Below are positions 12,732 through 39,230 of a stretch of 64,000 bases of DNA, piece after piece. The stretch is from Gammaproteobacteria bacterium. GTDB taxonomy: Bacteria > Pseudomonadota > Gammaproteobacteria > Eutrophobiales > Eutrophobiaceae. The position numbers were made by a program, and so were the translations under genes. The DNA is taken from the NCBI GenBank assembly GCA_965222155.1, contig CBDCTH010000012.1:1056001-1120000 (forward strand), read 5' to 3'. Position 1 is the stretch's first letter. Each line of letters begins with the position of its first letter. The notes under the pieces were generated by a model. It ran no database searches and was not told the DNA's origin. It saw only the letters and a program-made list of their open reading frames with translations.

Positions 12732-12743
12732 GTTTCTCACGCA

Positions 12744-20050: not shown

Positions 20051-20119
20051 TTGACGCGGAACACTCATAAAATAGGGACATGTTTACCCCTGTATGTGGC
20101 AAACAGGGGTTGAAACCTG

Positions 20120-20280: not shown

Positions 20281-20289
20281 TGCAATGTC

Positions 20290-20557: not shown

Positions 20558-20607
20558 CCCGTATTCCTCTTTTCAGGCTCATTTCATGTTGAACAATGCT
20601 GTTTCTT

Positions 20608-20874: not shown

Positions 20875-20876
20875 AT

Positions 20877-21146: not shown

Positions 21147-21348
21147 GAGGATACCTCGTGTACGTTCTTACAGGGAACAGTCTAGGCGATCTTGCTACCA
21201 TTTGCAATACAATATTCAGGTTCGGTGTTGCCATTCTGAGAGTGTAAATTCAGGACACCCATGTATTTTACAATGGTGCGCAAGGCGTGAATGTGACGCG
21301 GTTGATTACCGGAAAGCAGGCGGTTGTTTTACGTTACATTTAGCCGAA

Positions 21349-22060: not shown

Positions 22061-22384
22061 GCAGGAGTTAATGTATGTAGTCCGGTTGCGACACATGTTG
22101 CAACGAGGCGTTCCCGTTCAATCCGATTTGGCTTGTCATCACGCTGTCTCTGGCTGGCCTTTTCTACCAGTTTACGGGTTTCCTCCGTATCCTTTCCGAT
22201 ATAGCAGGAACGTTTGTTCCTCCCTACGGTATATTGCAGGCAGCAATTCCCGCTAACGCCTGAGACGTACTGAAATCCTTATCAATACAGGGATTTTACA
22301 GGGGTTAAAAAAGTGTTCGTAAACGTTTCATGTTGATTCAGTCTAGTAGCAGGAATTAGTCAAGTCAAAGGTGACCCATCCTGT

Positions 22385-23254
22385 CCCGTCCTGCTCTGCG
22401 CAAGACCCTGAGCGCCCCCGGTTTGTCAGGATATTTGGGGTCAGAGTAAAAATACAGTCAGTTTGGCAAGTGGTAGTGGCTTGTTGTTGAGTATTTTTAC
22501 TCTGACCCCAAATATCCTTCAAGCTATCAACGATGACACGGTCGGTCGGGGTTTGACCCTGGCGGATTACCTGCTGTCGGGGTTGGCGGTGTTCGGCTTG
22601 ACGTATCCATCGTTGTTGCAGTTTGACCGGGGTCGGGAGGACGAGTTGGTGCGGTCGAATCTGCGGTCGTTATACGGGATAGGGCGGGCCCCAGAGCCTG
22701 CCCCTGTATGGCGTTGAGCAGGGGGACACGGCCTTGCGGGCACGCGTGGACGCGCTGGCCCCCGCGGGGTTACGGCGTGCCTGCCGGCGGGTGGTTCAGG
22801 TGCTACAACGGGGCAAGCTGCTGGAAGACGTTCTCTGGTGGGGCGGTCACTACCTGTTGTCGGTGGATGGGACCGGGTAGTTTCAGTCGGACACGGTGCA
22901 TTGCGAGCAGTGCTGCGAGCGGCAGCACCGGGACGGGCGGGTGAGTTGGTATCATCAGTTAATACCCTGAAGCACCCAGGCGACCACGTTGAGCATACCC
23001 TCCAACACGGCTATCAGCACCTGTCCACGGTGCTGGCCTACCTGATGAGGCTGGCGTGTCTGATTGACCCGGTGCAGCAGCATTGCTGCGGGCTGTTTCA
23101 ACAGGGGGTGGCGAAGCGGGGCTGCAAGCGTGACGTCCGGGAGACACTGCGCAGCGTCTTCTGCACCTGGCTGGTGCCGGACTGGGAGACGTTGTATCGG
23201 GCCCTGGCCTACGGTGTATCGCCTACGGTGGTGGCGCCGTATGATACCGCTTGA
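22385..23254 (+). pseudogene. Degenerate DDE transposase (ISNCY/IS4-like)
   Basis: LADYLLSGLAVFGLTYPSLLQFD, YLLSVDGTG*FQSDTVHCEQC, NTLK...EH..HGYQHLSTV; frameshifts, a stop, an internal deletion and two repeat insertions. Confidence 0.75.
22428..22518. repeat. 28-bp perfect inverted repeat with 35-bp spacer, inserted in the transposase remnant
   Basis: AGGATATTTGGGGTCAGAGTAAAAATAC ... GTATTTTTACTCTGACCCCAAATATCCT. Confidence 0.9.
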
Positions 23255-23556
23255 GGACGGGCCGGGGTCGAGTAGTTCAAGGTGGGGGACTTCAGGGGAA
23301 GCCAAGCCACATCAACATAACCGGGGATAGCCGGCGGGTCGCGTATCCCCTGAGGGTCGGGTCACGGTGAAAAAAACGAACCTGACCCGACAATATAACC
23401 AGCTGATAAAGTTAACAGGAGCTGCTGGTCAACAACTAATATACTGTACGGTATATAATTTGTTGATATAAGATTGCAGAATTTATCCTGGCTCCCGAAC
23501 GGGGCCAGAGGAGTAATTACTTTTTGTAGACCTGCTTTACTGCAGCCGTAACAGCG

Positions 23557-24024
23557 GCATGCACCCCGGTCTCAAGCAACGTGCCGTGGGCGCTCAGGAG
23601 TTCGTCGTTATGACGCACTATTGCCATATTGCGGCTGATGCGCATCACAGCATTCATCTTCAGGCTGCCGCGGGCCATGTAAACGTCAGGCGCAATTTCT
23701 GAAATATCGTTGTGCGGGTAGGCGGGCGCAAAGGTCATTTTTGCTTGTTCGTATTGACGATCTGAGTTATTAAAACAATGGCAATACCGATTACTGTTAT
23801 CCCAATTGCTGACACTGTATGATTTACATCACTTTCCAAGAAATAGGTCAGGGCGAACGCATACTTTAGAATCCGGGTTATCGTCATTCCGGCGCAGGCC
23901 GAGTAGTGGCACATGGATGTGCCGTCAACGGAGCGTAGGATGCAAATCCAGTCGAAAAAGACGGTTCCTTATGGTAAAAGGTTAGTTTGTTAACTGGATT
24001 CCGGCCTGCGCCGGAATGACGAAC
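23557..24024. repeat. Direct repeat copy B (partner 19007-19567)
   Basis: Same sequence as copy A minus ~65 bp (between GAGTT microhomologies) and minus a 28-bp hairpin. Confidence 0.92.
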
Positions 24025-24272
24025 TGAGTTATACAGCTGGTTTTCTATTCTTGACGGCCTGCGCCGGAATGACGAGATCAGGGCAACCAGGGCTTTCAAT
24101 TCAACTTTGATTTCATTACCGGTGATGACGTTCCAAGACGGGCATTCGTTGCGGGGGCAGTCAAGGGAGAGTCCCTGTATTTGATGTTCTATCAGGCAAC
24201 AAGCCTTTACTACTATGACAAATACCTGCAAGACGTGATGACCATGGCCGCTGGCATGAAATTAAATTAACA

Positions 24273-25076
24273 ATGAAAAGAGTTTTATACTTATTACTTT
24301 CGGCAGCTTTAATTTCAAACAACGTTTACGCGGAACAACGACTTAGGTTGGCCACGACCACCAGCACGGAAAATTCGGGTCTGCTGTCCCTGTTGCATCC
24401 GCCTTTTGAAGAGCGGCACAACGTCATGGTGGACGTGATCGCCGTCGGCACCGGCAAAGCCCTGCGCCTGGGCAGGAACGGTGACGTGGACCTGGTCATG
24501 GTCCATGCCCCTGCTGCGGAGCGGGAGTTCGTTAACAGTGGATTTGGCGTGGAACGCCTGACCGTCATGCACAATGATTTTATCCTGGTCGGTCCCGCTG
24601 CAGATGCGGCAGCCGTGAACGCGGCAAGTTCCCTGGCAGACGCCATGACGCGCATCGCACAATCCGCTACCGGTTTTATCTCGAGAGGGGATGATTCAGG
24701 GACCCACATGAAGGAAATGGCTCTCTGGCAGGCGGCTCGGATCAGTCCGGAGGGGGCATGGTATCTGTCTGTAGGACAGGGTATGGGCGCCGTATTGAAA
24801 ATCGCCGATGACAAGCTGGCGTACACACTGACCGACAGGGGGACGTACCTGGCATTTATCGGTAAAATAGAGTTGGCTATCGCCTATGAAGGCGCGGCGG
24901 AGTTACTGAATCCCTATCACGTTATCATCGTAAACCCCGAAAAACATCCCCATGTCCAAACGACTCTGGCGCAGAAATATGTGGACTTCATCCGGGGAGA
25001 GGAGGGCCAGCGTATTATTCGCGAATTCAGGATTTCAGGCGAGCAACTCTTCATCCCTGACGTTGTTTCTCCGTGA
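24273..25076 (+). CDS. tupA: Tungstate ABC transporter substrate-binding protein (TupA-like)
   Basis: LRLATTTSTENSGLL, AVGTGKALRLGRNGDVD, FISRGDDSGTH, LLNPYHVI. Confidence 0.88.
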   Translation: MKRVLYLLLSAALISNNVYAEQRLRLATTTSTENSGLLSLLHPPFEERHNVMVDVIAVGTGKALRLGRNGDVDLVMVHAPAAEREFVNSGFGVERLTVMHNDFILVGPAADAAAVNAASSLADAMTRIAQSATGFISRGDDSGTHMKEMALWQAARISPEGAWYLSVGQGMGAVLKIADDKLAYTLTDRGTYLAFIGKIELAIAYEGAAELLNPYHVIIVNPEKHPHVQTTLAQKYVDFIRGEEGQRIIREFRISGEQLFIPDVVSP

Positions 25077-25081
25077 GAGAA

Positions 25082-26377
25082 TCAGGCACTTTGCTCCTTT
25101 TCCGGCGCCAGCGGGTCGCCCAGGTCCGTTTCATCCATCGCCTCGGCCACGATAACCTGTGAGGTCTGCATCATGACTGTCATGCCATGGGATTGCTCCT
25201 CAGCGGTAATGGGCGCTCGCACCGACATTCGGTACAGGGTGAACAGCGCCATGAACAGATAAACCAGGGCCACGAAGTAATACAGGCTGCCCGGACCGAA
25301 GAACTTCATCATCTGGGTACTGAGTATGGGACCTGTTAACCCACCGATTCCGTTTATGAAAATAATGCAGCCGCTGGCCGACAGGATTTGTTCGTTGCGT
25401 ACGTGGTCGTTGATGTGGGACAGGCACACCGAATAAAAACACAAGACCACCCCGCCCACCAGGAACAACAGGCCGGCCAGCAGCCACAGGTTGCCCAGGC
25501 GCGCGGCAAACGGCACGAACAGGCTTGCACCGGCAGCCAGGACTGATAATAACAGCAAGGTATGACGGCGTTCCTGGCGATCAGACAACCTGCCGACCGG
25601 CAGCAATAACACCAATCCTCCGAACATCAGGATGCCTACCAGCAAGGCGCTTTCGGCAACGGAAAAACCACTCTGGTTGCCGAATACCGCGGTTAACCAC
25701 ATCACTGCGCCGAAGGTAAGTCCCTGGACAAAGACACCCATGGCTCCCAGAGGAGTCAGCCTGATCAGCCTGCTTAGCTCAAGGTGCTCCGCGTACGCGA
25801 TCGCAGGGGCGGAAATATTACTCAGCAACATGGGCACGATAGCGATGGACAGCACCACGGAGGCAAGGATAAATAACTCGAAACTCAGGGGGGAGGCCAG
25901 ATTTATCAGGAATTGTCCGCCAGTGAAGCCAAGGGTGATAGTGAACATGTAGGCAGCCAGCAGGCGTCCCCGATTGTCGTTGCCGGTGATGGCGTTCAGC
26001 CAGCTTTCCGAGACCATGAACAGGCCGGACAGACAAAAGCCGGTGAGCATTCGGAACAGGAACCACATCACCGGGTTTATAACGGCAGAGTGCAACAGGA
26101 TAGCTACGGACGCTATCGAAGCCAGCGCGGCAAACACGCGGATATGTCCCACCTGTTTCACCCACCTGGGCACAACCCGGGCGCCCAGGAGGAAACCGAC
26201 GTAATAGGCGGACATGATGAGTCCGATAGTGTCCACAGCAAAGTCTTCCAGGGATGCCCTGATCCCCAGCAGCGTGCCTTGCATGCCGCTACACACGGAA
26301 ATCAATGCAACGCCGAACAGCAGGCTCCAAACCAGTATAATCTGTGGTTTTTTCATTTGCTGACCTGTATGTTTCAA
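25082..26377 (-). CDS. MFS transporter (YcaD-like)
   Basis: About 12 hydrophobic segments; VGHIRVFAA, ESWLN, GRLSDR motifs. Confidence 0.9.
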   Translation of the reverse strand: MKHTGQQMKKPQIILVWSLLFGVALISVCSGMQGTLLGIRASLEDFAVDTIGLIMSAYYVGFLLGARVVPRWVKQVGHIRVFAALASIASVAILLHSAVINPVMWFLFRMLTGFCLSGLFMVSESWLNAITGNDNRGRLLAAYMFTITLGFTGGQFLINLASPLSFELFILASVVLSIAIVPMLLSNISAPAIAYAEHLELSRLIRLTPLGAMGVFVQGLTFGAVMWLTAVFGNQSGFSVAESALLVGILMFGGLVLLLPVGRLSDRQERRHTLLLLSVLAAGASLFVPFAARLGNLWLLAGLLFLVGGVVLCFYSVCLSHINDHVRNEQILSASGCIIFINGIGGLTGPILSTQMMKFFGPGSLYYFVALVYLFMALFTLYRMSVRAPITAEEQSHGMTVMMQTSQVIVAEAMDETDLGDPLAPEKEQSA

Positions 26378-26559
26378 GAGTGATTGCCCGATTAATCTGC
26401 TTCGATAAGTTCAAGGGTGGTTTCTGTTACCTGTTCACCGGCAAGTGGCGCGATTGTCCGCTAATTTTATAGATAGTCAAGCACAATCAATGGGTAGCTT
26501 TACGGTGTGTTCGGGGTTATAGTGTTGCGGGGGAAAAACTCACAACAATCAGATATATA

Positions 26560-28116
26560 GTGCTATCCCGCAAGCAATACGACAGCCGTTATACGGTCGG
26601 ACAGGACAACGTCCGCATCTTCAGGATGGAGTTACATAACCCGGTATTTTTTATCACTGCATTTCTCACCATCAGTTTTGTTGTAGGGACGTTGTCGTTC
26701 CCCCAGTATGCCAAAATCATACTTGAGCAGGCAAAGAACTGGTCCATTGAAAATTTCCATTGGCTGGTGATTATTTCGGGCAATTTCTTTGTCTTCTTCT
26801 GCATGATGCTGATCGTGCTACCTTGCGGCAAAATACGGCTGGGTGGAGAAGCGGCGAAACCCGAGTTTTCCAGACCATCCTGGTTTTCCATGCTGTTTGC
26901 CGCCGGGATGGGCATCGGTCTGATGTTCTGGTGCGTCGCCGAGCCGGTTGCCTACTACACGAACTGGGCCGGTACGCCGTTAAATGTACAGCCACATTCG
27001 CCTGAAGCTGCTGCCGTCGCGATGGGAGCGTCGCTGTATCATTGGGGATTGCATCCCTGGGCTATCTTTGCTGTGGTGGCACTGTCCCTGGCCTTCTTTT
27101 CTTTCAATAAAGGGTTACCATTGGCGCCCCGCTCTATCTTCTATCCGTTGTTCGGCGAACACTGCTGGCGCTGGCCGGGCCATCTCATTGATATGGTGGC
27201 TGTCTTCGCTACCATTTTCGGTCTGGCCACTTCCCTTGGACTGGGAGCAAAACAGGCCACCGGGGGACTACACTCCGTATTCGGCGTTGACAACGGCTTG
27301 ACGACACAGTTGATGCTTATCGCCGTGATCACGACAATAGCAATTATCTCGGTCATGCGCGGCCTGGATCGGGGTGTCAAGGTATTGAGCAACTTCAATA
27401 TACTGGTTGCCTTGCTGCTCCTGGTGTTCGTTATCAGCGCCGGCCCCACCTTGTCGGCTCTTTCCGGTATCGGTGAGAATCTTTCACATTATCTGACGTA
27501 CTTCATCCCCTTGAGCGACTGGGTCAGCCGGGAGGACGAGGTATGGTACAAGAGCTGGACCGTGTTCTACTGGGCCTGGTGGATATCCTGGTCGCCTTTT
27601 GTCGGCCTATTTATCGCGCGTATTTCCAGGGGCCGTACAGTCAGGGAATTTGTGACGGCTGTATTGTTATTGCCGACCCTGGTCAGTGCCATCTGGATGT
27701 CGGTTTTTGGCGGCATTGCACTGGACCAGGTCCAGCTCGGTATAGGTGAGTTGACCAACGGCATTGATGATCCCTCCCTGGCGCTCTTCCACATGCTGGG
27801 AAACCTGCCGTTTACAACCATGGCATCACTGGTTGCAGTGGTACTGGTGCTGACTTTTTTTATTACCTCAGCCGATTCCGGCTCCCTGGTCGTGGACATT
27901 ATCACCGCCGGGGGACGGCTTGATACTCCCCGTTACCAGCGCGCTTTCTGGGCGATACTGCTGGGTCTGATTGCGGCGGCCTTGCTCATCGGCGGCGGCA
28001 GCGACGCCTTGAGCGCGTTACAAGCCGGCACCATCACCATGGCCGTGCCGTTTACCGTGGTGCTACTCCTTTCCTGCCTGTGCCTGGTACTGGGCCTGTT
28101 GTCTGAGTCCTATTGA
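26560..28116 (+). CDS. BCCT-family betaine/choline/carnitine transporter
   Basis: SWFSMLFAAGMGIGLMFW, HWGLHPW, WTVFYWAWWISWSPFVGLFIARISRGRTVREF. Confidence 0.96.
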   Translation: MLSRKQYDSRYTVGQDNVRIFRMELHNPVFFITAFLTISFVVGTLSFPQYAKIILEQAKNWSIENFHWLVIISGNFFVFFCMMLIVLPCGKIRLGGEAAKPEFSRPSWFSMLFAAGMGIGLMFWCVAEPVAYYTNWAGTPLNVQPHSPEAAAVAMGASLYHWGLHPWAIFAVVALSLAFFSFNKGLPLAPRSIFYPLFGEHCWRWPGHLIDMVAVFATIFGLATSLGLGAKQATGGLHSVFGVDNGLTTQLMLIAVITTIAIISVMRGLDRGVKVLSNFNILVALLLLVFVISAGPTLSALSGIGENLSHYLTYFIPLSDWVSREDEVWYKSWTVFYWAWWISWSPFVGLFIARISRGRTVREFVTAVLLLPTLVSAIWMSVFGGIALDQVQLGIGELTNGIDDPSLALFHMLGNLPFTTMASLVAVVLVLTFFITSADSGSLVVDIITAGGRLDTPRYQRAFWAILLGLIAAALLIGGGSDALSALQAGTITMAVPFTVVLLLSCLCLVLGLLSESY

Positions 28117-28166
28117 TGGGGAGCGGTTGACGGCGTTGGCAGTTCAATTACCTTATGGAAGTACTG

Positions 28167-28379
28167 ATGAAGTACGAAATCGTCCTTCGCAAATCTGATG
28201 GAGGCAATAGCGTTTCAGTGCCTGGCCTGCCAGGTTATTGGTTGCAGGGAGAGACGGAAGATGAGGCGATTGCAAATATTGAGACGGCGATATGTGAATA
28301 TCTTGATGCCAAGGAGATTGACTTGTTCCCCATTTGTGGTACATTATCTGTTAATGAAAAAGGAGGTGTCCATGGCTAA
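28167..28379 (+). CDS. HicB-like antitoxin (short, possibly degenerate; no hicA)
   Basis: SVSVPGLPGYWLQGETEDEAIANIETAICEYL. Confidence 0.7.
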   Translation: MKYEIVLRKSDGGNSVSVPGLPGYWLQGETEDEAIANIETAICEYLDAKEIDLFPICGTLSVNEKGGVHG

Positions 28380-28629
28380 GACAGAAACAATCCGTGCCCG
28401 TGTTGAACCGCGGTTGAAGTGCCAGGCCGAAGAGGTCTTCTCGGAGATCGGGCTGTCGCCAACCGAAGCGATTACGCTGTTTTATACGCAGGTAACCCTG
28501 CACCAGGGTTTACCGTTCGTCGTGAAGGTTCCCAATGCCGAGACCATCGAAGCGCTACGTCAGGCACGCTCAAGAGAGGGGCTTACTGAATACACCGACC
28601 TGGACGACCTCAAAGTCAGGCACGGCTAA
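28372..28629 (+). CDS. RelB/DinJ-family antitoxin
   Basis: AGGAGG RBS, MAKTETIRARVEPRLK...GLPFVVKVPNAET. Confidence 0.88.
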   Translation: MAKTETIRARVEPRLKCQAEEVFSEIGLSPTEAITLFYTQVTLHQGLPFVVKVPNAETIEALRQARSREGLTEYTDLDDLKVRHG

Positions 28630-28632
28630 TTC

Positions 28633-28675
28633 ATGCGCCTGCTCACCACGAATCACTTTAAAAAGGATATCATAT
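28633..28675 (+). pseudogene. N-terminal stub of a YafQ-like toxin
   Basis: MRLLTTNHFKKDI immediately after the antitoxin, then loss of similarity. Confidence 0.5.
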
Positions 28676-29060
28676 GTGCAGAATTCAACGTTACCTTGTT
28701 CAGAAAAAGCACAGGGCAGGTAGCGTCAGACACTTAAGCTTGAGGTCACAGTCTGTGACCTCAAGTGGTCAAATTTTTCCTTGTCGAACCAGTTAGGGAT
28801 ATTTGAGTTTTTTTGAAGAATGTAGAAGCTCAATCCATGAGGCCATTATCACTTCATTTTATACGATAACAAATTTGTGCGTTGTGAGAGGATGTTCCGG
28901 GTTGGGCGGCAGGTATTGTATTTCTTCTTCCTCCGCTTTTGGCGTAGGTAATTCGTAGAGACCGCTAACTTCGATATATTGCTGGTATTGCTTTTTAACC
29001 TGTTCCAGAGTTTCCAGGTAATCGTCTAAAGCTGTTCTTTTCAGTCACTACAATCAAATC

Positions 29061-30011
29061 CTAATCAAATTTTATTTCTGTTGAAACGTCTGCAATGTTC
29101 TTGTGGTGTTCTTTACGCAGGGCCTGTTTCCACGCGCGATGCTGTGCCTGCTTATATTGCCATTCCCGGTATTGGCGATTGGCCTCGTCTGCCGCTAACA
29201 GGAGTGTTTCGCGATGATACTTCTTGACTTCATCAATGGTTGTTCCAGCCAGAATCACAGTGGCATTATTAATACTTGCGATTCCAGGACGATGCATACT
29301 AGTCCACTGGGGAGGGTGGTTCCAACTGGCGATGAACAGACTCTCCCATTCCGCAGGTGGCTGGCGAGAAAGGGCGAAGGGAATAGTGTACAGAGCACTT
29401 CCAGGGGTACCGTCGTTACGCGGTTCCGTAATATCTTCCACGATTACGTGCGTAATTTTGATGTCCTCAAAGTCTGGACTCCGATTAGTGTTGCGATGCG
29501 CTACTTTTGGTTGTTGGGTCGTGTTGGGATTGACTGTTGCCATCGGCTCTCCAATTGGCGGCGCGGTCTCGCGGCTACCTAGTAATGTACAAAGTAGGTC
29601 ATCATAATCCTGTTTACGATAGGGGTTAGTAGAAAGATCAATGTAGTATTTCCCAGCAAGCCAAGATGGTGCGGCCTCGTCCCAATCGCCGCTTCGTAAT
29701 ACTGGAATAAACTTCCGATTGTTCTGCTTGGTCATGACTTCTGCAGTCATAATGTCCCCCTCGTAGCCTACACCACCCAGGCGTTCGTCTGAGCGGCTCT
29801 TATAGCGAGGTGTGCAGATTATGACAATGAACCAGTTGTCGCGAATAGCTCGCTCCATAAAGGCGGGTAGCTGATCTCCAGGGGCCGTGTGCCATCTATC
29901 GAGAGTGACGTTGACACCGTCTTTGCGAAGACGCCCAGCAAGCGAGCGGACCCACTCTTTGTGAATCTCATTGTCCCATGAGTAAGAAATGAATGTCGGT
30001 GGAGAAGTCAT
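29061..30011 (-). CDS. SEFIR/TIR-domain protein with uncharacterised C-terminal domain
   Basis: TFISYSWDNEIHKEWVRSLAGRL..GVNVTLDRW, FMERAI, GGVGYEG, KFIPVLR. Confidence 0.88.
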   Translation of the reverse strand: MTSPPTFISYSWDNEIHKEWVRSLAGRLRKDGVNVTLDRWHTAPGDQLPAFMERAIRDNWFIVIICTPRYKSRSDERLGGVGYEGDIMTAEVMTKQNNRKFIPVLRSGDWDEAAPSWLAGKYYIDLSTNPYRKQDYDDLLCTLLGSRETAPPIGEPMATVNPNTTQQPKVAHRNTNRSPDFEDIKITHVIVEDITEPRNDGTPGSALYTIPFALSRQPPAEWESLFIASWNHPPQWTSMHRPGIASINNATVILAGTTIDEVKKYHRETLLLAADEANRQYREWQYKQAQHRAWKQALRKEHHKNIADVSTEIKFD

Positions 30012-30014
30012 AAT

Positions 30015-30989
30015 TCAATCATTCTTTATCGAGTCTTCGTTACAGTCCTCTACCGAGGTATCTGCAGAACTCTCGCAAAGTGGAGTGTCAAGCGTATTTT
30101 CTTGGCGATTATCACCCTCATGTCCGTGTATATCATTTAATGTCGTAAAATTATCTGAACCATCTGCCTGAATGGCGTATTGGAATCGGACTTCGTCCTT
30201 GTTATCACCTCGTGTATCATCCTTGATTTCAATCACATGCACGGCAGCATAGAAGCCTTTTACATTCCGCAATACGAATGTTTCCCCGCATTGGGGAGTC
30301 CGGACATGCGACGAATAGTCCAACGACTCAGCATTCGATATCTGTACGATGGACGTACATCCTTTGGCTAACGCGACACCGTTAATCAAAAGAGGGTCAT
30401 TGTAAACATGGATGCTTTTGTCACTCGCCTTACTCCATTTCGTTTCAAATTCAAGCTCTCCATGACCGATAACGTAGCGGCCATTATGATTACTGTAATC
30501 GAATACTGCCTCGCCAGATAGTGACGTCATTCGCGGGGGTGGCAGATCCGACGCCTTACCCTCAAAATGCTTGACTCCAAGCTTTTCGGCGATCATTGCT
30601 GCAAGTGTCGCAGGCTGATGATCACAGGCCCATTCGTACTTGATGGAGGTCGGCAAACCTGGGACGGACGTTTCGTCAAAGCGTACTGGCAGAATATACT
30701 CTTCTTTCTGTTGGATTGCTCGACTTAAACTTGATTGTCTTTCATGACTTGGCCAAGCCTTTTTAACGTACTCCTCGGAAATGAACATTACGACATAAGC
30801 AGCCCTGTTTTCGAATACGTCATGTAATTCTTCTACGAGGTTTTTTCCCCAGAGTTGGATGGTCTCGAATTCGTCGTAGAATACGGAGATTTTTTGGCTC
30901 TGAAGTGCCAGCGCCACATCTTCAACATATTTACGCTGTTCGCCAGCGAAGGATAGTGCTACTTCATATTTTATGTTTTCTTTCATCAA
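30015..30989 (-). CDS. TIR-domain protein with uncharacterised beta-rich C-terminal domain
   Basis: YEVALSFAGEQR..VFYDEF..LWGKNL..FISEEYVKKAWPSHER (putative catalytic Glu)..ILPVRFD. Confidence 0.9.
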   Translation of the reverse strand: MMKENIKYEVALSFAGEQRKYVEDVALALQSQKISVFYDEFETIQLWGKNLVEELHDVFENRAAYVVMFISEEYVKKAWPSHERQSSLSRAIQQKEEYILPVRFDETSVPGLPTSIKYEWACDHQPATLAAMIAEKLGVKHFEGKASDLPPPRMTSLSGEAVFDYSNHNGRYVIGHGELEFETKWSKASDKSIHVYNDPLLINGVALAKGCTSIVQISNAESLDYSSHVRTPQCGETFVLRNVKGFYAAVHVIEIKDDTRGDNKDEVRFQYAIQADGSDNFTTLNDIHGHEGDNRQENTLDTPLCESSADTSVEDCNEDSIKND

Positions 30990-31090
30990 TCAATTCTCCT
31001 TACGTTTTTTCCCTCCCGATCAATGCAGTCGTCACCCGTATTTTCTTCAGTTAATTCACGGTTAGCGGTGATGTGTGGGTATCAATCTTA

Positions 31091-32236
31091 TCAATGAGCT
31101 AAATACGGTCTGACATCTGCCTTCCTCATTGGTCTTTCCTTAACCTCAAAGTTAATTTCGAGAATGCACGGGACAGGCTCCGGTACGTTGTCGCCCCGTA
31201 GCTCTCCTTCCAGTTTTGTGATCCCACCCCTTGATCCAATGAGAAGTGCGCTGGTCGTCCAAACTTCGTCGCGAGGTCTAATATCGCCGAAGTCGATAGT
31301 AATCTTCCACCCGTCAGTAAATTCTTGGACATAGGGATCGGGATTGCTCTGAAGTTGTTGTGCAAGCGGGACGATATCTGAATACGCTCCTTCCATACTA
31401 TTACGATATGGACGCGTTGGTCGATTAGTCCGATCTAGGAGAAAAATAGTATTGTCTTTGGTAACTGAGCCGATGAAACGAATACGTTTTCCGACTACCC
31501 CGCTGTGATTATATAGCCGTAGGTGAAAAGATTTGAGGAAAGCCATATCACGGGTATACCGAATAATCTCCTTAGAGTAGTTTTCATTATCAAGAGCAAG
31601 GCGCGGAAGAAAGACAGGGGAGGGGCGAGGAGACTCAAACGTGTCATCCGGGAGTAATGGGCAGAGAATCAAGGAGTTTACGGTGTGGGGGGAAAGAAGA
31701 GCAGTATGTCTTTCTACATCCGCCCACTCAAGAACGAATTGAGGCGTGTCGTCAAAATTCTGATCCGCACCCATTCGCGCAACCTCGTCCGGGGAGGCAA
31801 TCGCTGTCGAACTACCGTCCCTTTTGTAGACAACATTATTCTCAAGCTTACCAAACCGTTTTTTGAGGTAGATAGGGCGCTCCTGTATCGGTATCACAAT
31901 CACGCCAATTTCCACATCCCCTGTACGAAATGGTTGGTACGAGAACTCAATAGGTCGTTGGGTCTTCGCGTTTACAAATTGATGTAATTTAGCGTCGTCC
32001 AAGTGCGCTTTTACTCCAACAATCTTACTGCGTCCTCCTTTGACTTCATCTACTCCTATCAGTATGTACGCAGTTGTCCCGCGCCAAGCATTAGTAAAAG
32101 CGAGGATATCCTTGAGTAATTCGCTTTTGGCTTTATCATCGGCCCCTTCAAAAAGGTATTGATCCCGCTTAAAATCCAGTGTAGCCCCTTCCTCCTCGTG
32201 GAGTAGTTGCTCAAGGAGATTCTTATCTATAGACAT
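31091..32236 (-). CDS. Schlafen/AlbA_2-domain protein
   Basis: EEGATLDFK, ELLKDILAFTNA, YILIGVDE, VYKRDGSST; unknown C-terminal half. Confidence 0.88.
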   Translation of the reverse strand: MSIDKNLLEQLLHEEEGATLDFKRDQYLFEGADDKAKSELLKDILAFTNAWRGTTAYILIGVDEVKGGRSKIVGVKAHLDDAKLHQFVNAKTQRPIEFSYQPFRTGDVEIGVIVIPIQERPIYLKKRFGKLENNVVYKRDGSSTAIASPDEVARMGADQNFDDTPQFVLEWADVERHTALLSPHTVNSLILCPLLPDDTFESPRPSPVFLPRLALDNENYSKEIIRYTRDMAFLKSFHLRLYNHSGVVGKRIRFIGSVTKDNTIFLLDRTNRPTRPYRNSMEGAYSDIVPLAQQLQSNPDPYVQEFTDGWKITIDFGDIRPRDEVWTTSALLIGSRGGITKLEGELRGDNVPEPVPCILEINFEVKERPMRKADVRPYLAH

Positions 32237-32403
32237 TACAATAGCTCCGTGTAAACATTTGATAACGCACTCTGTCGTACGTAATTACCATAGCTCGTTT
32301 GGTTACAGGTGACACGTCGAATCATCCCTATTTGTTTTCTATGCTTATTTGCACACTCCAAGCATGTGGAGATGACCCAACCCAAAGTTTTTTCTTGCAT
32401 GCG

Positions 32404-33262
32404 TCACATATCATTTCTGGTGACTTCAGCCTCGTCCCACACTCGGGCAATGGAGGCTTGAATCTTTTTTTCGAAGAGTTCGATTAGCTTCTGGTTGGCA
32501 GCGACAAATGCCTGCTCTTCCAGTTCCAGGCTGTCTACCAGGAACAGGACACGACGGGCGTTACCGGAGCGCAGTGATAATTTGATGACGGCAGCGGCGG
32601 TGAGGGTCTTGCCTGTGTCGGTGGCCATCTCGGATAAGAACCGGTCCTGGCCCTCTTTTACTGCTCTTTGTAGAGTGTGAATAGCGTCCAGTTGGTAATC
32701 GCGCAAGAAACGCAGCTTGTTGGTTTGAATGTAGGCAGGCCGTTCGTATTCAATCTTCCATCCGGCCTCGGCTGCGTAATTGGGCCGTTGCGTCAGGACG
32801 ATATAGTCTTCACCAATCGGTTCATTGATCAGACGTTGTGGGTCGGGCGTGACTTGCCCGCAGTTTGCCACCGAATCCGGCGTCGGAAACGAGGTGATGA
32901 TATGAGGATTCCCGCGTTCCAGGTACCAGAAATAGTGCAGGTTGCCGTTCGACAGTATGATGAATCGGCAGTTTTGTGAGCGGGCATACTTGCGGGTCTG
33001 TTCTTTGCCGACAAGAGGTTCTTTGTTTTCCGACTTGGCCTCCAACACGATGAAAGGGAAACCTTTATCGTCTAAGAGTAGGAAGTCGATATAGCCCTTG
33101 GATGTTTTCTCGAAGTCATTGCCTAGGGCATCAAGATATGATGTCTTGAACATAGCGCCGGATTCGAGGCAGACGTTGGCGGGTTTGCCGTCTTCGGCAA
33201 AGAAACGCCAGCCGGCTTTCAGGTAGCTTGTTAATCTTGATGCGGGCTGTGGCTTCGTTCAT
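32404..33262 (-). pseudogene. hsdR: Collapsed type I R-M locus: HsdR N-terminus fused to an HsdS-like C-terminus
   Basis: MNEATARIKINKL start with a frameshift; IDFLL..VLEAK nuclease motif; LRDYQ; Walker A degenerate (MATDTGKT); after VLFLVD..ELEEQA the frame continues as FVAANQKLIELFEKKIQASIARVW. Confidence 0.8.
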
Positions 33263-33427
33263 GGGGTTGAGTCGACCTTTTGATAGCTGGTGTTATTTTA
33301 CACATATTAACAGGGAATATTTTTTTGACTGGATTCTGGCATGCGCCAGAATAACGGATGAGCTTATACTCTCGGTTTTAATATGACTTGTGTAATGGTA
33401 TCCTGTCAGTAGCCTACTGACTGCACA

Positions 33428-35023
33428 GTGACCGTGACCGCCATCTCACCAACCCCGCAACCGACCCTGGATAAAAAGGTTTTCCTGCCTACATTTGTCC
33501 TGGTTATGATCACCGGCGCGTTGCTGGTCCTGAAACCTGAGAGTGCCCAGTTGCTTCTCGGTGACGCGTTGCAGGTAGTTACCGGCTATTTCGGCTGGTT
33601 GTATCTTCTGGTGGGCTTTGGCGCCATCGCGCTACTTACCTGGCTGGCGTTCAGTCGTTACGGGCGGGTAAAATTAGGCGCCCCTGACGACGGCCCCGAA
33701 TTCTCGACGCTAAGCTGGATTGCCATGATGTTTACCGTGGGGATAGGTATCGGCCTTACCAACTGGGCATTTGTCGAACCGATCTTTTATTTCCAATCGC
33801 CCCCGTTCGGAGTCGAGGCGGGTACGCCGGAGGCGGCCGAGTGGGCGCACATGTACGGCCAGTTCCACTGGTCGATAGTGCCCTGGGCAATCTACGCGCT
33901 GCCGGCGTTGCCGATTGCCTATTCCCTGTATGTCCGAAAACAGCCTTTCTGCAGGATCAGTAGCGCAAGCGCCGGCGTGCTCGGCCGGCAGAGCGCCGGT
34001 TGGCTTGGCATAGGAGTCGATGTGATTGTGATTATTGCCATAATCGGCGGTACCGGCACCAGTCTGGGGCTGGGCCTTCCCCTTGTCTCCGCACTTGTCG
34101 CCGAGTGTTTTTCCCTGCCGGATACGCCTATGTTGCAATTCGGCGTCCTGGTGGTGTGGACGGCCATCTTTGCAACAAGCGTTTACATGGGACTGGAGAA
34201 GGGTATCCGTATCCTCGCCGACGTGAACGCAGTGTTCGCTATTCTTTTCCTGATATTCGTGCTGGTTGTCGGTCCGACCGTATTCATCCTGAATATGTCT
34301 GTGAACAGTTTCGGTCTGATGCTGGACAACCTGTTCCGCATGAGTTTCTGGATGGATCCGGTTACAAAAAGCGGCTTCCCTGAGAATTGGACGGTGTTCT
34401 ACTGGGGCTGGTGGATTGCTTATGCACCGATGGTCGGACTGTTCGTGGCGCGCATTTCCAGGGGGCGAACGATCAGGGAGGTCATCATCGGCCAGATGAT
34501 ATGGGGGAGCCTCGGTTGCATGGCCTTTTTTGCAATTGCTGGCGGGTATTCTCTGGATATGGAGATGAGTGGCATTCTGGACATATCCTCGGTGCTGAAC
34601 GATTCAGGTATCCCCGCCGCTGTCGTTGCCATCGTCGGCAGCCTTCCGGGAGGGGCGCTCACGCTGTTCATATTTACTCTCCTGTGCATTATTTTCCTCG
34701 CCACGACGCTGGACTCTGCCGCTTACGTACTGTCCAGTATGAGCACCAGGAACCTGACCGGAGAGGGGCAGCCGGCTCGCTGGAATCGCTTTGCCTGGGC
34801 CTTTGCTCTTGCCATCATAGCGGTCGGGCTGATCGCGGCCGGCGGCTTGAAGACCGTACAGACGTCAACGGTGATTGCCGCATTGCCGTTGATCCCGGTT
34901 CTGGTGATCTTGCAGCTTTCCTTATTCAAATGGCTGCGTAAGGATTTTGGTAATACGCTCCGACCGGCAAATTATGCACTTGAACACCGTCCGGACGGCA
35001 AAACGGAAGTACGCGAGGTTTAA
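33428..35023 (+). CDS. BCCT-family transporter (carnitine/butyrobetaine, CaiT-like by context)
   Basis: SWIAMMFTVGIG, FHW, WTVFYWGWWIAYAP..FVARISRGRTIRE; adjacent to carnitine genes. Confidence 0.93.
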   Translation: MTVTAISPTPQPTLDKKVFLPTFVLVMITGALLVLKPESAQLLLGDALQVVTGYFGWLYLLVGFGAIALLTWLAFSRYGRVKLGAPDDGPEFSTLSWIAMMFTVGIGIGLTNWAFVEPIFYFQSPPFGVEAGTPEAAEWAHMYGQFHWSIVPWAIYALPALPIAYSLYVRKQPFCRISSASAGVLGRQSAGWLGIGVDVIVIIAIIGGTGTSLGLGLPLVSALVAECFSLPDTPMLQFGVLVVWTAIFATSVYMGLEKGIRILADVNAVFAILFLIFVLVVGPTVFILNMSVNSFGLMLDNLFRMSFWMDPVTKSGFPENWTVFYWGWWIAYAPMVGLFVARISRGRTIREVIIGQMIWGSLGCMAFFAIAGGYSLDMEMSGILDISSVLNDSGIPAAVVAIVGSLPGGALTLFIFTLLCIIFLATTLDSAAYVLSSMSTRNLTGEGQPARWNRFAWAFALAIIAVGLIAAGGLKTVQTSTVIAALPLIPVLVILQLSLFKWLRKDFGNTLRPANYALEHRPDGKTEVREV

Positions 35024-35094
35024 TCCGTATTTCCCGCCAGGGGGATGTGGTCAGCGCGTTTCCATGCTATTATTACAATAATTCGGAGGGATTT

Positions 35095-36060
35095 GTGTTA
35101 GCTGCTAAACAACCACTCCATTACGGGTTCCTGCTGGTACCGAATTTTACGCTGATCGCGTTTTCTTCCGCAGTCGAAGCGCTTCGTATGGCAAATTTAA
35201 CCTCGGAGCAGGAGTTGTATCGCTGGTCCGTTTTGACTTTTGATGATGCTCCCGTCTCATCAAGCGCCGCCCTGCAAATCCAGCCCACACTTCCGTTTGA
35301 TCAGGTAAGAAAACTCGACATGTTGTTCATCTGTGCCGGCGTACATGTCAAGGATGCCTGGAATCCGGCGTTAGGCAAGGCATTGCGGCGGCTTGCCTGC
35401 ACCAGTTTACCCCTGGGCGCTTTGTGTACCGGATCATACCTCCTGGCAAAATCCGGTGTGCTTAACGATCATCGTTGCACGATACACTGGGAAAACATAG
35501 GTGGCCTGCGCGAGGAATTTCCCCAGCTGAAAGTGACTGACGAACTTTTTGAGATTGATCGCCGGCGTTATACCTGCGCCGGCGGCACGGCGCCGTTGGA
35601 CCTGATGCTGTTCCTGATACGAAGGGACTACAACCGGGAAATCGCCTCGGCAATTTCCGAGCAGTTCACGGTTGATCGCGTCAGGGAACTGGGTGAGCCC
35701 CAGTATATATCGGTGCGCAGCCAGGCTCCCGGCGCGCCGGATTACCTGAATGAGGCCGTACTGCTCATGCGGAATAATATTCCCGAACCGTTGCTCGTAG
35801 AGGAAATCGCCAAATATCTTAATGTGTCGACACGGCAACTGGAACGTGTGTTTCGGCAATATTTCCACTATTCGCCAAGCCAGTATTACCTGAGGCTGCG
35901 ACTGGTTGCCGCCCGCAATCTGCTGCGCCACACCGGCACGAATGTACGTGGAATAGCAATAGAAACCGGCTTCAAATCCTTGCAGCACTTCAGCAAGTGT
36001 TACCACGAGTATTTCAAAATCAGGCCTAGCCAGGAGCGCGCCAAATATTCCGAGGTATAA
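35095..36060 (+). CDS. GlxA-family (GATase-AraC) regulator, CdhR/GbdR-like
   Basis: FSSAVEALRMAN, GALCTGSY, CTIHWEN, TCAGGTAPLDLML, AraC HTH; GTG start with GGAGG RBS. Confidence 0.92.
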   Translation: MLAAKQPLHYGFLLVPNFTLIAFSSAVEALRMANLTSEQELYRWSVLTFDDAPVSSSAALQIQPTLPFDQVRKLDMLFICAGVHVKDAWNPALGKALRRLACTSLPLGALCTGSYLLAKSGVLNDHRCTIHWENIGGLREEFPQLKVTDELFEIDRRRYTCAGGTAPLDLMLFLIRRDYNREIASAISEQFTVDRVRELGEPQYISVRSQAPGAPDYLNEAVLLMRNNIPEPLLVEEIAKYLNVSTRQLERVFRQYFHYSPSQYYLRLRLVAARNLLRHTGTNVRGIAIETGFKSLQHFSKCYHEYFKIRPSQERAKYSEV

Positions 36061-36253
36061 ACGATCTGAATTTGACTTGTCCCGGCAAAGAAGAAATACG
36101 GTTCATAATGGTAATGATACTTTACGAATGACGACAGCAGGGGTCATATTCGTATTGCGTAATTGGGTAAATTAGTGTCGCAATTTTCCCGAATTTCATA
36201 GTCATGATGTGGTTCAATAATATGAAACATGACTGGATTCAGGGGGTAAATGA

Positions 36254-37144
36254 ATGAATTTTGAAGTTGCTATCACCTGTGCCGTGACCGGCGCCGGCGA
36301 TACGGTCGGTAAACATCCCGCCATTCCGGTTACTCCGGAACAGATTGCCGCGGCCGCGCTTGATGCAGCCAAGGCCGGGGCGGCCATTGTCCATTGCCAT
36401 GTGCGCGACCCTGAGACGGGCAAGGGAGCGCGTGACGTTGCGCTCTACCGGGAAACGGTCGATCGTATTCGCTCTGCCGAAACCGACGTGGCGATCAACC
36501 TTACTGCGGGTATGGGTGGAGATCTCGTCATCGGCCCTGATCATGACCCGACGCGATTTGGAGTCGACACCGATCTTGTCGGCGCCCGCGAACGCCTGCC
36601 TCATGTGGAGGAACTGTTGCCGGAAATCTGCTCCCTGGATTGCGGTTCACTCAACTTCGGCGACGGCAGTCTTGTTTACGTATCCACACCTGACATGCTG
36701 CGCCGCGGCGCAAAGCGCATCCGGGAACTGGGCGTCAAACCGGAACTGGAAATTTTCGATACGGGCAACCTGAGTTTTGCGCTGCAAATGCTCAGGGAAG
36801 ATTTGCTGGAGCCCCCGCCGTTGTTTCAACTCTGTCACGGCATTCCCTGGGGCGCGCCGGCGGATGTGGGCGTTTTCAAATCCCTGGTCGACCAATTGCC
36901 GCCCGGCGCCAACTGGACTGCCTTTGCCCTGGGCCGCTACCAGATGGCCTTTGTCGCACAGGCCGCCATACTCGGCGGCAATGTGCGGGTTGGCCTGGAG
37001 GATAATCTCTACCTGGAGAGAGGGGTATTCGCTACTAATGCGCAACTGGTGGAGCGGGCGCGCAAGATCATTGAACTGATGGGCGCCCGCGTGCTGGGAC
37101 CCGACGAAGTGCGGGAGAGATTCGGTCTGGTCAAACGTGCCTGA
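36254..37144 (+). CDS. cdhC: Beta-keto acid cleavage enzyme (BKACE; 3-dehydrocarnitine cleavage, CdhC-like)
   Basis: [47 protein letters not shown]. Confidence 0.9.
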
Positions 37145-37189
37145 AGGAATTCCGACTAGCACCGGAATTCGGGGCGGGCATCCGCCGAT

Positions 37190-38194
37190 ATGACAAAAGG
37201 GGAAGAGCCGATGACGAGGGATATCAAAACCGTCGCTGTTATCGGTACCGGCGTTATCGGCGCCGGTTGGGCGGCGCGGGTACTGGCGCACGGACTGGAT
37301 GTGATCGCCTGGGACCCCGGTACGGACTGGCAGGACAAACTGAGCGCCGCGCTGGAGAACGCCTGGCCGGCGTTATGCAAACTTGGTCTTTACCCCGGTG
37401 CGAGTCTGGAACGGCTGCGTTATGCCGGCTCGCTGGACGAGGCCTGTACAGTTGCCGATTTCATCCAGGAAAGCGCCCCCGAGCGGCTGGATTTGAAGCG
37501 CAGACTGCATGCCCGAATAGACGCAAGTGCTCCTGTCGAGGTCATCATCGCCTCCAGCACATCGGGGTTGTTGCCTTCTGATTTCCAGGCTGACTGCCGC
37601 CGGCCAGAACGGGTCATCGTCGCACATCCCTTTAACCCGGTGTACCTGCTGCCGTTGGTGGAAGTACTGGGCGGCAGTAAGACTGCGGATAAGAATATCG
37701 ACCGCGCCATGGAGTTTTACACCGACATGGGTATGCACCCGTTGCGAGTGCGCAGCGAAATCGAAGGCTTCCTCTCGGACCGCTTGCAGGAGGCCCTATG
37801 GCGGGAAATCCTGCACCTGGTCAACGATGACGTGGCTAACACCGAGGAACTGGACGCAGCAATCACCTACGGCCCCGGTCTGCGCTGGGCCTTTATGGGG
37901 ACTTGCCTGGCTTTCCATATGGCAGGCGGCGATGCGGGCCTGCGTGATTTTATGAAACAGTTCGGCCCGGCACTGAAATTGCCCTGGACAAAACTGGAAG
38001 CCCCCGAGCTGACCGATGAATTGATCGACAAGATGACTACCGGGACCCGGCAACAGGCTGCGGGCCGGACAGTGAAGGAACTGGAACAATTACGCGATGA
38101 TTGCCTGATCGACATTATGCGGGCGCTATCCCGTTACCAGGTCGGCGCCGGTAATGTACTCACCCGGGATGAAGCACGCCGAGAACAGATGTAA
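37190..38194 (+). CDS. lcdH: L-carnitine dehydrogenase (no thioesterase fusion)
   Basis: IGTGVIGAGWAAR, IQESAPERL, ASSTSGL, HPFNPVYLLPLVE, DRLQEALWRE, GPGLRWA. Confidence 0.92.
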   Translation: MTKGEEPMTRDIKTVAVIGTGVIGAGWAARVLAHGLDVIAWDPGTDWQDKLSAALENAWPALCKLGLYPGASLERLRYAGSLDEACTVADFIQESAPERLDLKRRLHARIDASAPVEVIIASSTSGLLPSDFQADCRRPERVIVAHPFNPVYLLPLVEVLGGSKTADKNIDRAMEFYTDMGMHPLRVRSEIEGFLSDRLQEALWREILHLVNDDVANTEELDAAITYGPGLRWAFMGTCLAFHMAGGDAGLRDFMKQFGPALKLPWTKLEAPELTDELIDKMTTGTRQQAAGRTVKELEQLRDDCLIDIMRALSRYQVGAGNVLTRDEARREQM

Positions 38195-38219
38195 CTGAAA
38201 GTGTACCCATACTACCCAC

Positions 38220-38392
38220 CGTCATTCTTGCTCAGCCCGGCGCGTCATTCTGGCGAATGCCAGAATCCAGTCATATAACTTTCCTTATTGTATAAGCCTG
38301 CCCCGTGCTTACGACATGCAGGGGCAAGCTCTGGAAGGATATAATCCAGGGACGATTATTCTACTGGATTCCGGCATTCGCCGGAATGACGG
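38220..38392. repeat. REP pair with internal hairpin between convergent genes
   Basis: CGTCATTCTGGCGAATGCCAGAATCCAGT ... ACTGGATTCCGGCATTCGCCGGAATGACG. Confidence 0.88.
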
Positions 38393-38405
38393 CAGGAACA
38401 GTTGG

Positions 38406-39200
38406 TTAACGTCCTTTCCAGATCGGTTTGCGCTTTTCTGCGAAGGCGCGGGTGCCTTCCTGCAGGTCCTCGCTGTCATACAGCGCGTTAACGGATGGAA
38501 TACCCTTGTTGTTCAGTAGGTTAAGCGCTTCCTGTTGCTTGAGGTTTTCGGTCATGCGTACAGTCTCCTTGGTGGCGGCGAAGACCAGCGGCGGGCCCTC
38601 AGCGAGGAGTTGGGCGACTTCACGTACACGGTTCATCAGTTCTCCCGCCGGCACCACCACATTGACGAGTCCCCAGCGCGCGGCTTCTTCGGCCTCCATC
38701 CAGCGTCCCGTCAACAGCAGGTCCATGGCAATGTGGAAGGGTATGCGGCGCGGCAGTTTTACGCTGGCGGCATCGGCGAGCACGCCGACGTTGATCTCAG
38801 GCAACGCAAAACGGGCGTGTTCGGCCGCGTAGATTAAATCACAGGAAATGGCCAGTTCAAAACCGCCTCCAACCGCCATGCCGTTGACCGCGGCGATGAC
38901 GGGCTTGTTGAGTCCGGGCAGTTCCTGCAGTCCGCCGAATCCGCCGACGCCGTAGTCCGTGTCCGGCGGCTCGCCCGCCGCCGCAACTTTCAGATCCCAT
39001 CCTGCACAGAAAAAACGTTCACCTGCTGCCGTCAGGATCGCGACGCGCAGTTCCGGGTCATCACGAAATCCGGCAAACACGTCGCCCATGAGCTGGCTGG
39101 TGGGGCCGTCAATGGCATTCGCCTTGGGCCGGTCCAGGGTGACTTCGAGAATGGCGCCGTTGCGCCTGGTGTGAATAGGATTACCTGTTGTATTTGTCAT
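38406..39200 (-). CDS. caiD: Carnitinyl-CoA dehydratase / crotonobetainyl-CoA hydratase
   Basis: LDRPKANAID, FFCAGWDLK, DYGVGGFGG, KPVIAAVNGMAVGGGFE, FAEKRKPIWKGR. Confidence 0.9.
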   Translation of the reverse strand: MTNTTGNPIHTRRNGAILEVTLDRPKANAIDGPTSQLMGDVFAGFRDDPELRVAILTAAGERFFCAGWDLKVAAAGEPPDTDYGVGGFGGLQELPGLNKPVIAAVNGMAVGGGFELAISCDLIYAAEHARFALPEINVGVLADAASVKLPRRIPFHIAMDLLLTGRWMEAEEAARWGLVNVVVPAGELMNRVREVAQLLAEGPPLVFAATKETVRMTENLKQQEALNLLNNKGIPSVNALYDSEDLQEGTRAFAEKRKPIWKGR

Positions 39201-39230
39201 CGCTCATTTCATTCAGTTAAACTACATTAC

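Follow-up and report, generated by a model that had tools for sequence, protein, structure and literature searches.

Three independent sensor-effector genes with Schlafen, TIR and SEFIR heads are probably stacked in a defence islet inserted between BCCT transporter genes of a gammaproteobacterium

We analysed a 64,000-nucleotide (nt) stretch of a gammaproteobacterial genome (GenBank assembly GCA_965222155.1, contig CBDCTH010000012.1, positions 1,056,001 to 1,120,000; hereafter the window, in whose numbering coordinates are given unless a locus is named), in which an inserted segment at 28099-33375 carries a Schlafen gene (A), a TIR gene (B) and a SEFIR gene (C). This segment is probably a small horizontally acquired defence islet stacking three independent one-polypeptide immunity genes, each combining an effector head with a sensor tail, rather than a three-gene system. 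A sequence-only reading of this DNA had proposed an undescribed three-gene anti-phage system, possibly a TIR/SEFIR-to-Schlafen pathway, and had offered a stack of single-gene sensor-effectors as its second reading; the evidence favours the latter, and the former finds no support, none of the loci examined carrying homologues of any two genes together. What was observed directly comprises the domains and catalytic motifs, the sizes of the families, the borders of the island, the absence of conserved co-occurrence, domain shuffling and the deletion of a restriction-modification (R-M) system. On this view the locus would be no new system but a commonplace islet that collects modular sensor-effector defence genes. 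It nevertheless offers a compact and well-delimited example of how defence islets are assembled, in which a Schlafen gene apparently outlived its deleted R-M partner and a TIR and a SEFIR gene seem to be welded at a visible joint, while head/tail swaps among the families support the view that bacterial immunity is built from modular sensor-effector parts.

Inspection of the open reading frames (ORFs) showed that A, B and C are intact, co-oriented on the minus strand and span 29061-32236, exactly where the sequence-only reading had placed them, and its description of them as AT-richer also holds, with a GC fraction of 0.44-0.51 in the bins of 28500-32499 versus 0.49-0.60 in the flanking transporter genes. 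The stop codon of B and the ATG of C are 3 nt apart (30012-30014), again as first described. All three genes are full-length and keep every position that is invariant in their families, and the catalytic residues named at the outset, E16, D21 and K23 of A and E83 of B, are real and family-invariant. Inert cargo of a decaying island would be consistent with the broken R-M and toxin-antitoxin (TA) modules around the three genes and with the abnormal 36-amino-acid (aa) tail of B; with all three full-length and every invariant position kept, and with the whole islet recurring in run X3 of a second study with 0 differences, we consider such a state highly improbable.

Each gene belongs to a large family of its own that is conserved over the full length (1669 matches for A, 2104 for B and 2164 for C). 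For B, 532 metagenome loci were confirmed by family alignment and the best 80 were kept (a scan with B alone found no relative); 48 of these are full-length, with at least 1 kb downstream in 28 and at least 1 kb upstream in 25, and none of the best 80 of the 532 held a relative of C or A (tblastn, 1e-3). The 115 nearest ORFs at 38 B loci encoded rpsK/rpsD, fmt, MFS, HsdM, HsdR, PIN, AbiJ, ThsB_TIR+TPR-S and insertion sequence products, with no recurring partner. A 251-aa ORF recurring downstream of B relatives was considered as a partner and rejected, as it came from one organism seen three times. One metagenomic setting is unusual for a defence-type gene, namely a B-family TIR gene directly downstream of the housekeeping pair rpsK-rpsD, which was met four times in one organism (L026, L027, L044 and L052).

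The searches centred on A and C gave the same picture, so that the conserved neighbourhood of the trio, for which the sequence-only reading had proposed a check, was not found in B-, A- or C-centred loci. None of six genome loci with a relative of A (L005-L010) contained a relative of B or C, and C was absent from all five of those genomes that were searched for it. No companion B or A gene occurred in 18 loci with a SEFIR or C relative (15 from the window's own phylum and three viral, one of the viral ones full-length), nor beside the C relatives in L117 or on plasmid H1, few full-length C loci being readable. Viral contigs provided three loci for C and three for A, again without co-occurrence, and in one genome of the same phylum (G260) an A-like gene and a SEFIR-head gene lie on separate contigs. 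Among the best 120 matches per family, a crude comparison by eye found no shared contig of at least 100 kb except the window's own. The tails of the three families are unrelated by profile-profile comparison, in which the alignments labelled A1 and A2 gave a probability of 0.7% and those labelled A1 and A3 one of 2.7%, both head-to-head only. On the other hand, the families do exchange parts: a TIR head sits on the tail of A in L008, and the tail domain of B lies inside the SEFIR gene itself in three of the 15 own-phylum SEFIR loci (L103, L105 and L108), which is what one would expect if the proteins are self-contained sensor-effectors.

A three-gene pathway of Thoeris-like logic, in which a nucleotide signal made by the TIR and/or SEFIR protein switches on the Schlafen nuclease, would fit the co-orientation of the genes, the lack of a predicted terminator between them and the type of TIR in B, whose profile is nearest to bacterial TIRs of the BtTIR/AbTIR type (structures 7uxr, 7uwg and 8g83). 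TIRs of this type make cyclic isomers of adenosine diphosphate ribose (ADPR). However, no two of the families were found together in any examined locus, the close relatives of A come after R-M genes and not TIR genes, A and B are separated by 101 nt, and the tail of A is modelled as an immunoglobulin (Ig)-like beta-sandwich, which is not a known nucleotide-sensing fold. We regard this pathway as exceedingly improbable. Thoeris itself is likewise not present in recognizable form. The TIR of B weakly matches the ThsB model (1.4e-5), but B has a C-terminal domain of its own and the pairing of ThsB with ThsA is lacking at this locus. As the sequence-only reading had remarked, a ThsA-type effector is absent: the search of the genome for SIR2_2 was negative (Macro and SLOG were not searched genome-wide), and 34 other large ORFs of the window gave no PADLOC match at E<=1e-8. 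B and C are the only TIR_2 matches of the genome above the Pfam cut-off.

Table 1. Positions and content of the features in and around the islet (window coordinates)
Feature	Position	Strand	Content or remark
Gene A, 381 aa	31091-32236	-	Schlafen/AlbA_2 head, residues about 1-150; predicted Ig-like beta-sandwich, residues about 160-381
Gene B	30015-30989	-	TIR head, residues about 1-140; unnamed domain of about 130 aa, residues about 155-288; acidic 36-aa tail, residues 289-324
Gene C, 316 aa	29061-30011	-	Layout from the predicted structure model: SEFIR head 1-145, disordered linker 147-178, alpha/beta domain 180-258, C-terminal helix 259-312
Probable recombination joint	30015-30123	-	Encodes the extra tail of B; accompanies C in runs X5 and X7
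AT-richer insertion, 5.28 kb (5277 nt)	28099-33375		Between the matching ends of two BCCT transporter genes
hsdR'-'hsdMS deletion chimera, 249-aa ORF	32404-33153	-	Upstream of A; dead type I R-M remnant
HicB-like ORF	28155-28379	+	Pfam HicB_lk_antitox, 1.7e-5, below family cut-off; frame open
RelB/DinJ antitoxin ORF	28372-28629	+	Pfam RelB, 7.6e-13; intact
34-aa ORF	28633-28737	+	Follows RelB, where a toxin would be expected; no Pfam match
Start-less small-ORF remnant, 55 aa	28880-29044	-	DNA matches of 76-85% in G013 and G018; no Pfam match
First BCCT transporter gene	26560-28116	+	
Second BCCT transporter gene	33428-35023	+	

By its sequence and modelled structure, A is a member of an already described kind, the pSlfn5-type Schlafen proteins. 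The head matches the Pfam family SLFN_AlbA_2 (residues 16-145, 2.8e-13), the relatives have a similar length of about 380 aa with 50-80% identity over 99% of it, and the invariant E16, D21 and K23 correspond to the Schlafen catalytic motif Ex4(E/D)xK, in which the nuclease-dead form of RorSlfn5 is changed as E15A/D20A (PMC13056530). Compared by motif and architecture, the acidic residues E16/D21 of A lie almost where E15/D20 lie in RorSlfn5. In the same source, RorSlfn5 combines the Schlafen nuclease with a C-terminal Ig-like sensor resembling integrin ectodomains, and the pSlfn5 protein that was tested needs no partner gene and senses a phage tail assembly chaperone (PMC13056530). The C-terminal part of A is also predicted to form an Ig-like beta-sandwich resembling integrin ectodomains (predicted structure and fold search), so that nuclease motif and modelled tail both agree with this kind. 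The sequence-only reading had called the C-terminal domains of all three genes unnameable; this stands in so far as none of them has a Pfam match at E<=10 or a PADLOC match at E<=0.01, but not for A, whose tail can be named from its model. The PADLOC candidate PDC-S50 shares with A a head in the same N-terminal place (4.2e-18) and a similar total length, but only residues 5-143 of A align, on positions 6-146 of 387, and the tail is left unaligned.

What sets A apart from the pSlfn5 protein is the R-M linkage of its clade, the term 'restriction-modification' occurring 0 times in the available text of PMC13056530. A co-oriented R-M gene lies directly upstream of a relative of A, or of its tail, in five of the six genome loci. 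Four full-length relatives stand behind a 205-aa hsdR remnant (L005), a type I system (L006) or an Eco57I-like type IIG gene (L007 and L010); in L008, hsdR-hsdMS is followed by a TIR head on the tail of A (residues 111-379 of A, 54% identity), and L009 has just the head of A with a different tail and no R-M gene. In L006 the order is hsdR, a PD-(D/E)XK gene and a group II intron reverse transcriptase/maturase gene (5069-6439, minus strand), which split hsdR from hsdMS, then hsdMS and the A homologue. The fusion in L008 is a 396-aa protein (9659-10849) with a ThsB-like TIR head (PADLOC ThsB1, 1.2e-40) and an A-type Ig-like tail; next come AAA_15/AAA_21 and DUF3226 genes (10997-12912).

In the window, the ORF upstream of A retains the trace of such a system. 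Residues 1 to about 215 of its 249 aa represent an HsdR N-terminus, which is 64% identical to a complete HsdR of 853 aa and is the only part covered by Pfam HSDR_N/ResIII and the NCBIfam EcoAI-type HsdR, and residues 213-242 match residues 855-884 of an 887-aa HsdM/S fusion from the same foreign locus (L006). Because the start of HsdR is joined to the end of HsdMS, the ORF is an in-frame deletion chimera. It is the sole remainder of a type I system, full hsdR, hsdM and hsdS being absent, and the earlier view that the R-M locus upstream is dead was correct. The shorter 205-aa remnant before the A homologue in L005 (4664-5281), in a second unrelated genome, lacks residues 138-212 of the window version; since the two remnants differ, the deletions were either repeated or successive. 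With five of the six close loci linked to R-M genes and the upstream ORF a deletion chimera, A can be seen as the former tail gene of an R-M block. Sequence comparison thus indicates that an hsdR-hsdMS-slfn block brought A in at its end and later lost its R-M part by in-frame deletion.

This linkage raises the possibility that A is the guard of its R-M system, kept in check by that complex until a phage blocks restriction and sets it free, and that it has been orphaned or re-tuned here. The logic would be that of PrrC-EcoprrI, in which an anticodon nuclease stands guard over a type I R-M system; the gene for this tRNA-directed nuclease is likewise embedded in the R-M operon or placed behind it, although its nuclease family and architecture are unrelated to those of A. 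Relatives of A or its tail stand immediately behind type I or type IIG genes in the same orientation, as a guard would, and L005 likewise has A behind a truncated hsdR remnant. PMC13462974 describes 'Cluster 4', a large group of R-M-linked Schlafen homologues whose C-terminal domains are unknown; by this description A resembles it in its Schlafen head, unnamed tail and R-M-adjacent kin, and differs in that the R-M system beside it has been deleted. However, A is intact with its invariant residues despite the loss of R-M both here and in L005, which indicates that it works, or is tolerated, alone; R-M genes adjoin the distant relatives of A (31-45% identity) in none of five loci; and the tested pSlfn5 protein, as cited above, senses its phage chaperone as a single gene. 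A guard function is thus unlikely in our view, and the reading of A as a self-contained gene of a stacked islet is preferred. A distant relative of A lies on a prophage-like contig next to terminase and portal genes (L129, 7713-9183); split there into two ORFs (225 and 296 aa), it is perhaps a broken gene.

C is, from sequence comparison, a bSEFIR-family protein and therewith kin of a validated single-gene defence. The bSEFIR of Bacillus sp. NIO-1130 (Millman et al. 2022) protects as a single gene against phi29, and the family is recognized by an N-terminal SEFIR domain whose SEFIR match is stronger than its TIR match (10.1101/2022.05.11.491447); a further report describes that bSEFIR depletes nicotinamide adenine dinucleotide (NAD+) through the N-terminal SEFIR domain (10.1101/2024.02.11.579819). 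C probably shares with it the single-gene form, and has in common with it an N-terminal SEFIR head, a strong profile match (PADLOC bSEFIR PDLC03957, 4.7e-65, residues 1-213 on positions 35-251 of 412) and a fold nearest to a prokaryotic SEFIR crystal structure in a search with the model. In Pfam, residues 6-139 match both TIR_2 (3.8e-21) and SEFIR (2.6e-14), and we judged the N-terminal domain of C to be a SEFIR of the published kind even though TIR_2 scores higher (76 versus 54 bits). Among the invariant acidic residues of this head are D38 and E84. The difference lies in the last ~100 residues of C, an alpha/beta domain and a long helix, which remain unaligned; this tail gave no named fold, the matches of both fold searches having gone to the SEFIR head. 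Two of the three genes thus match single-gene systems that already have names, bSEFIR and the pSlfn5-type Schlafen, which speaks against an undescribed cassette.

The C family typically has a length of ~313 aa and 62-73% identity over 98-100% of it; the members come from metagenomes of other phyla, the longer ones bear an unnamed N-terminal extension, and a 71%-identical member matches the bSEFIR profile over positions 38-295 of 412. Full-length relatives (40% identity) were also found on 45 plasmid records, mostly of Enterococcus. On the Enterococcus plasmid read in detail (H1), the relative lies beside AbiGi/AbiGii, Fic and recombinase genes, with neither a TIR gene of the B kind nor a Schlafen gene. 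Within 400 genomes of the window's own phylum, SEFIR heads occurred in 15 and full-length C relatives in none, and 401 genomes from the phylum to which G441 belongs gave no match to C.

B is the gene with the least precedent, and its C-terminal domain is the sole mildly novel piece of the locus. The protein has 324 aa when a TTG is taken as its start; translation more likely begins one codon further in, at an ATG (30986) preceded by AAGGAG, which gives 323 aa. Residues 10-117 match Pfam TIR_2 (2.6e-15), and the family members, mostly of 282-290 aa, are 62-77% identical and cover 85-91% of B, with conservation spanning the TIR head and the ~130-aa tail domain alike and with E83 lying in the invariant position of a WPSHE motif. 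Residues 3-102 match the TIR of the PADLOC candidate PDC-S66 (9.5e-15), but the TIR of that profile is C-terminal (positions 144-240 of 282) whereas that of B is N-terminal, and the tail is unmatched, so that the two architectures differ. The ~130-aa domain itself had no match in Pfam, PADLOC or the PDB sequences, and in the ESM Atlas B and its tail retrieved only B's own or TIR/SEFIR clusters, the tail matches reaching at most 0.84 and bearing no name. General-word literature searches found no paper on the architecture of B or on the tail module.

Searched alone against 1.84 billion representatives, the tail domain was found in 720 proteins at E<=1e-3. Its heads were surveyed by a Pfam scan of 101 proteins from the best 150, leaving out 49 shorter ones that are mostly filled by the domain. 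TIR_2 was the most frequent head (38, six of them with SEFIR too), followed by AbiH, HNH and cytidine deaminase (three each), protein kinase, matrixin and pentapeptide (two each), and caspase, FGE-sulfatase, cadherin, PKD and CsgG (one each), while 43 had no assigned family. Its rough consensus core reads FDYSN..G.Y.IG....FET.WSKAS..SIH.YND...I.GVA ... SSR.RTP..G..VVL.N..G.YAA..I..IKD..RGD..DEL.F.Y.I. By these comparisons the tail is a promiscuous unnamed module, and the company it keeps suggests a role in sensing or assembly. We tentatively propose, as an idea somewhat more likely wrong than right, that this module is a domain in wide use for sensing triggers or for assembly, as yet undescribed and carried by at least 10 kinds of head (TIR, SEFIR, AbiH, HNH, cytidine deaminase, caspase, protein kinase, matrixin, pentapeptide and FGE-sulfatase), and that the family of TIR plus this module is an unvalidated single-gene anti-phage system. 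The domain is common to many effector types, and hundreds of protein clusters would gain an annotation once it had a name and a known cue. In some proteins (among P0361-P0510) the domain, which in the window is encoded by 30120-30572 on the minus strand, occurs in 3-5 tandem copies, and some of the short proteins begin with a hydrophobic stretch.

The close spacing of B and C could be explained by a translationally coupled two-gene TIR plus SEFIR unit, in which the heads co-assemble as one NADase or signalling filament and either tail triggers both. The 3-nt spacing and the lack of an obvious ribosome-binding site before C fit such a unit, as do the related, head-to-tail assembling folds of TIR and SEFIR domains, the filament structures among the fold-search matches of C, and the second TIR gene that adjoins some B-family loci (L045, L058/59 and L061). 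A predicted B-C complex scored 0.00 against a mark of 0.32, which weighs neither way. However, the 28 full-length B loci with at least 1 kb downstream all lack a C relative, the plasmid relatives of C stand alone, and the junction itself appears recent, since in runs X5 and X7 the likeness upstream of C ends exactly where the conserved part of B ends. Most B-family proteins stop at the column of I288 of B, which is 36 residues longer. In both runs, copies of C with ~97% identity match the window up to position 30123, that is, up to 112 nt upstream of the ATG of C and to codon 289 of B (30123-30125), and then continue with 27-28 unlike letters (the strand sense of the minus-strand run records was derived from records that overrun the end of the stretch). 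The DNA encoding the extra tail of B thus seems to belong to the C module elsewhere, which would mean that the two modules were joined at the usual end of B. The comparison suggests, without proving it, that the 3-nt spacing is a by-product of this joining, namely the chance position of the first stop codon in the leader of C. We therefore consider a B-C unit very unlikely and retain the interpretation of B and C as separate members of the stack.

Under this interpretation, and by analogy with published relatives from which activation by a phage cue, oligomerisation and the tRNA and NAD+ activities are borrowed, each protein would stay switched off as long as its C-terminal part has met no cue derived from a phage, and would oligomerise once it has. 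A would cut the anticodon arms of tRNAs as RorSlfn5 does, C would hydrolyse NAD+ as bSEFIR does, and B might hydrolyse NAD+ or make an ADPR-derived product, which would have no known receiver here. Translation or metabolism would be stalled as the outcome, and the phage yield reduced.

Several points weigh against three independent genes and deserve consideration together. The tblastn threshold of 1e-3 may overlook highly divergent TIR or SEFIR partners, many metagenome contigs are short, and the neighbourhoods of full-length C relatives are few, being one viral contig and one plasmid locus besides the loci centred on A and B. Support for the joint at 30123 comes from two contigs, both short, whose unlike part amounts to 27-28 letters. 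C covers only part of the bSEFIR profile (35-251 of 412 positions) and scores better as TIR_2 than as SEFIR in Pfam. Some proteins with the tail domain of B seem to be secreted or membrane-bound (matrixin, cadherin, PKD and CsgG), and by its distribution a general binding domain would suit it equally well as a phage sensor. Finally, B and C lie only 3 nt apart, and no terminator-like site was found among the three genes on the minus strand, in a scan that was uninformative because its promoter and terminator counts were near the shuffle expectation; A, B and C may therefore share one transcript, and some cooperation among them may exist.

The borders of the islet were delimited by comparison within the genus. 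The two flanking BCCT genes are paralogous and stand in tandem within the genus, and their spacing is 116 nt in G014, 57 nt in G015 and 70 nt in G013 against 5277 nt in the window, the fourth relative (G002) being uninformative on this point. The short spacer between the BCCT genes is thus the insertion point of the islet and is occupied in this strain only. DNA of the trio was present in none of 40 relatives, three of which gave matches of 47-100 nt only. The tRNA and Rfam scans of 20000-40000 returned no match, the searches for direct or inverted repeats flanking the islet gave just short chance-like matches, and none of the 34 further large ORFs of the window had a PADLOC match at E<=1e-8. 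With no defence match among these ORFs and no border marks, the islet is an isolated 5.3-kb insert in housekeeping surroundings. Apart from the islet, the region 22000-24270 contains no ORF of at least 150 aa, no Rfam or tRNA match, a GC fraction of 0.48-0.63 and many short overlapping ORFs on both strands, and possibly consists of decayed genes.

The remaining part of the islet contains TA-type remnants (Table 1). The sequence-only reading had all R-M and TA neighbours decayed; this applies to the R-M remnant and to the missing toxin, but the HicB-like and RelB ORFs are open. From its position only, the 34-aa ORF after RelB might be guessed to be a truncated toxin. The start-less remnant at 28880-29044 on the minus strand (…LDDYLETLEQVKKQYQQY…) has kin elsewhere in the genus: in G018 an intact 74-aa ORF of its family (L003, 1469-1693) adjoins an 85-aa RelB homologue, and in G013 the N-terminal part of the family is fused to a HicB-like body (L002, 1274-1582). 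This small-ORF family looks like a wandering TA-type module.

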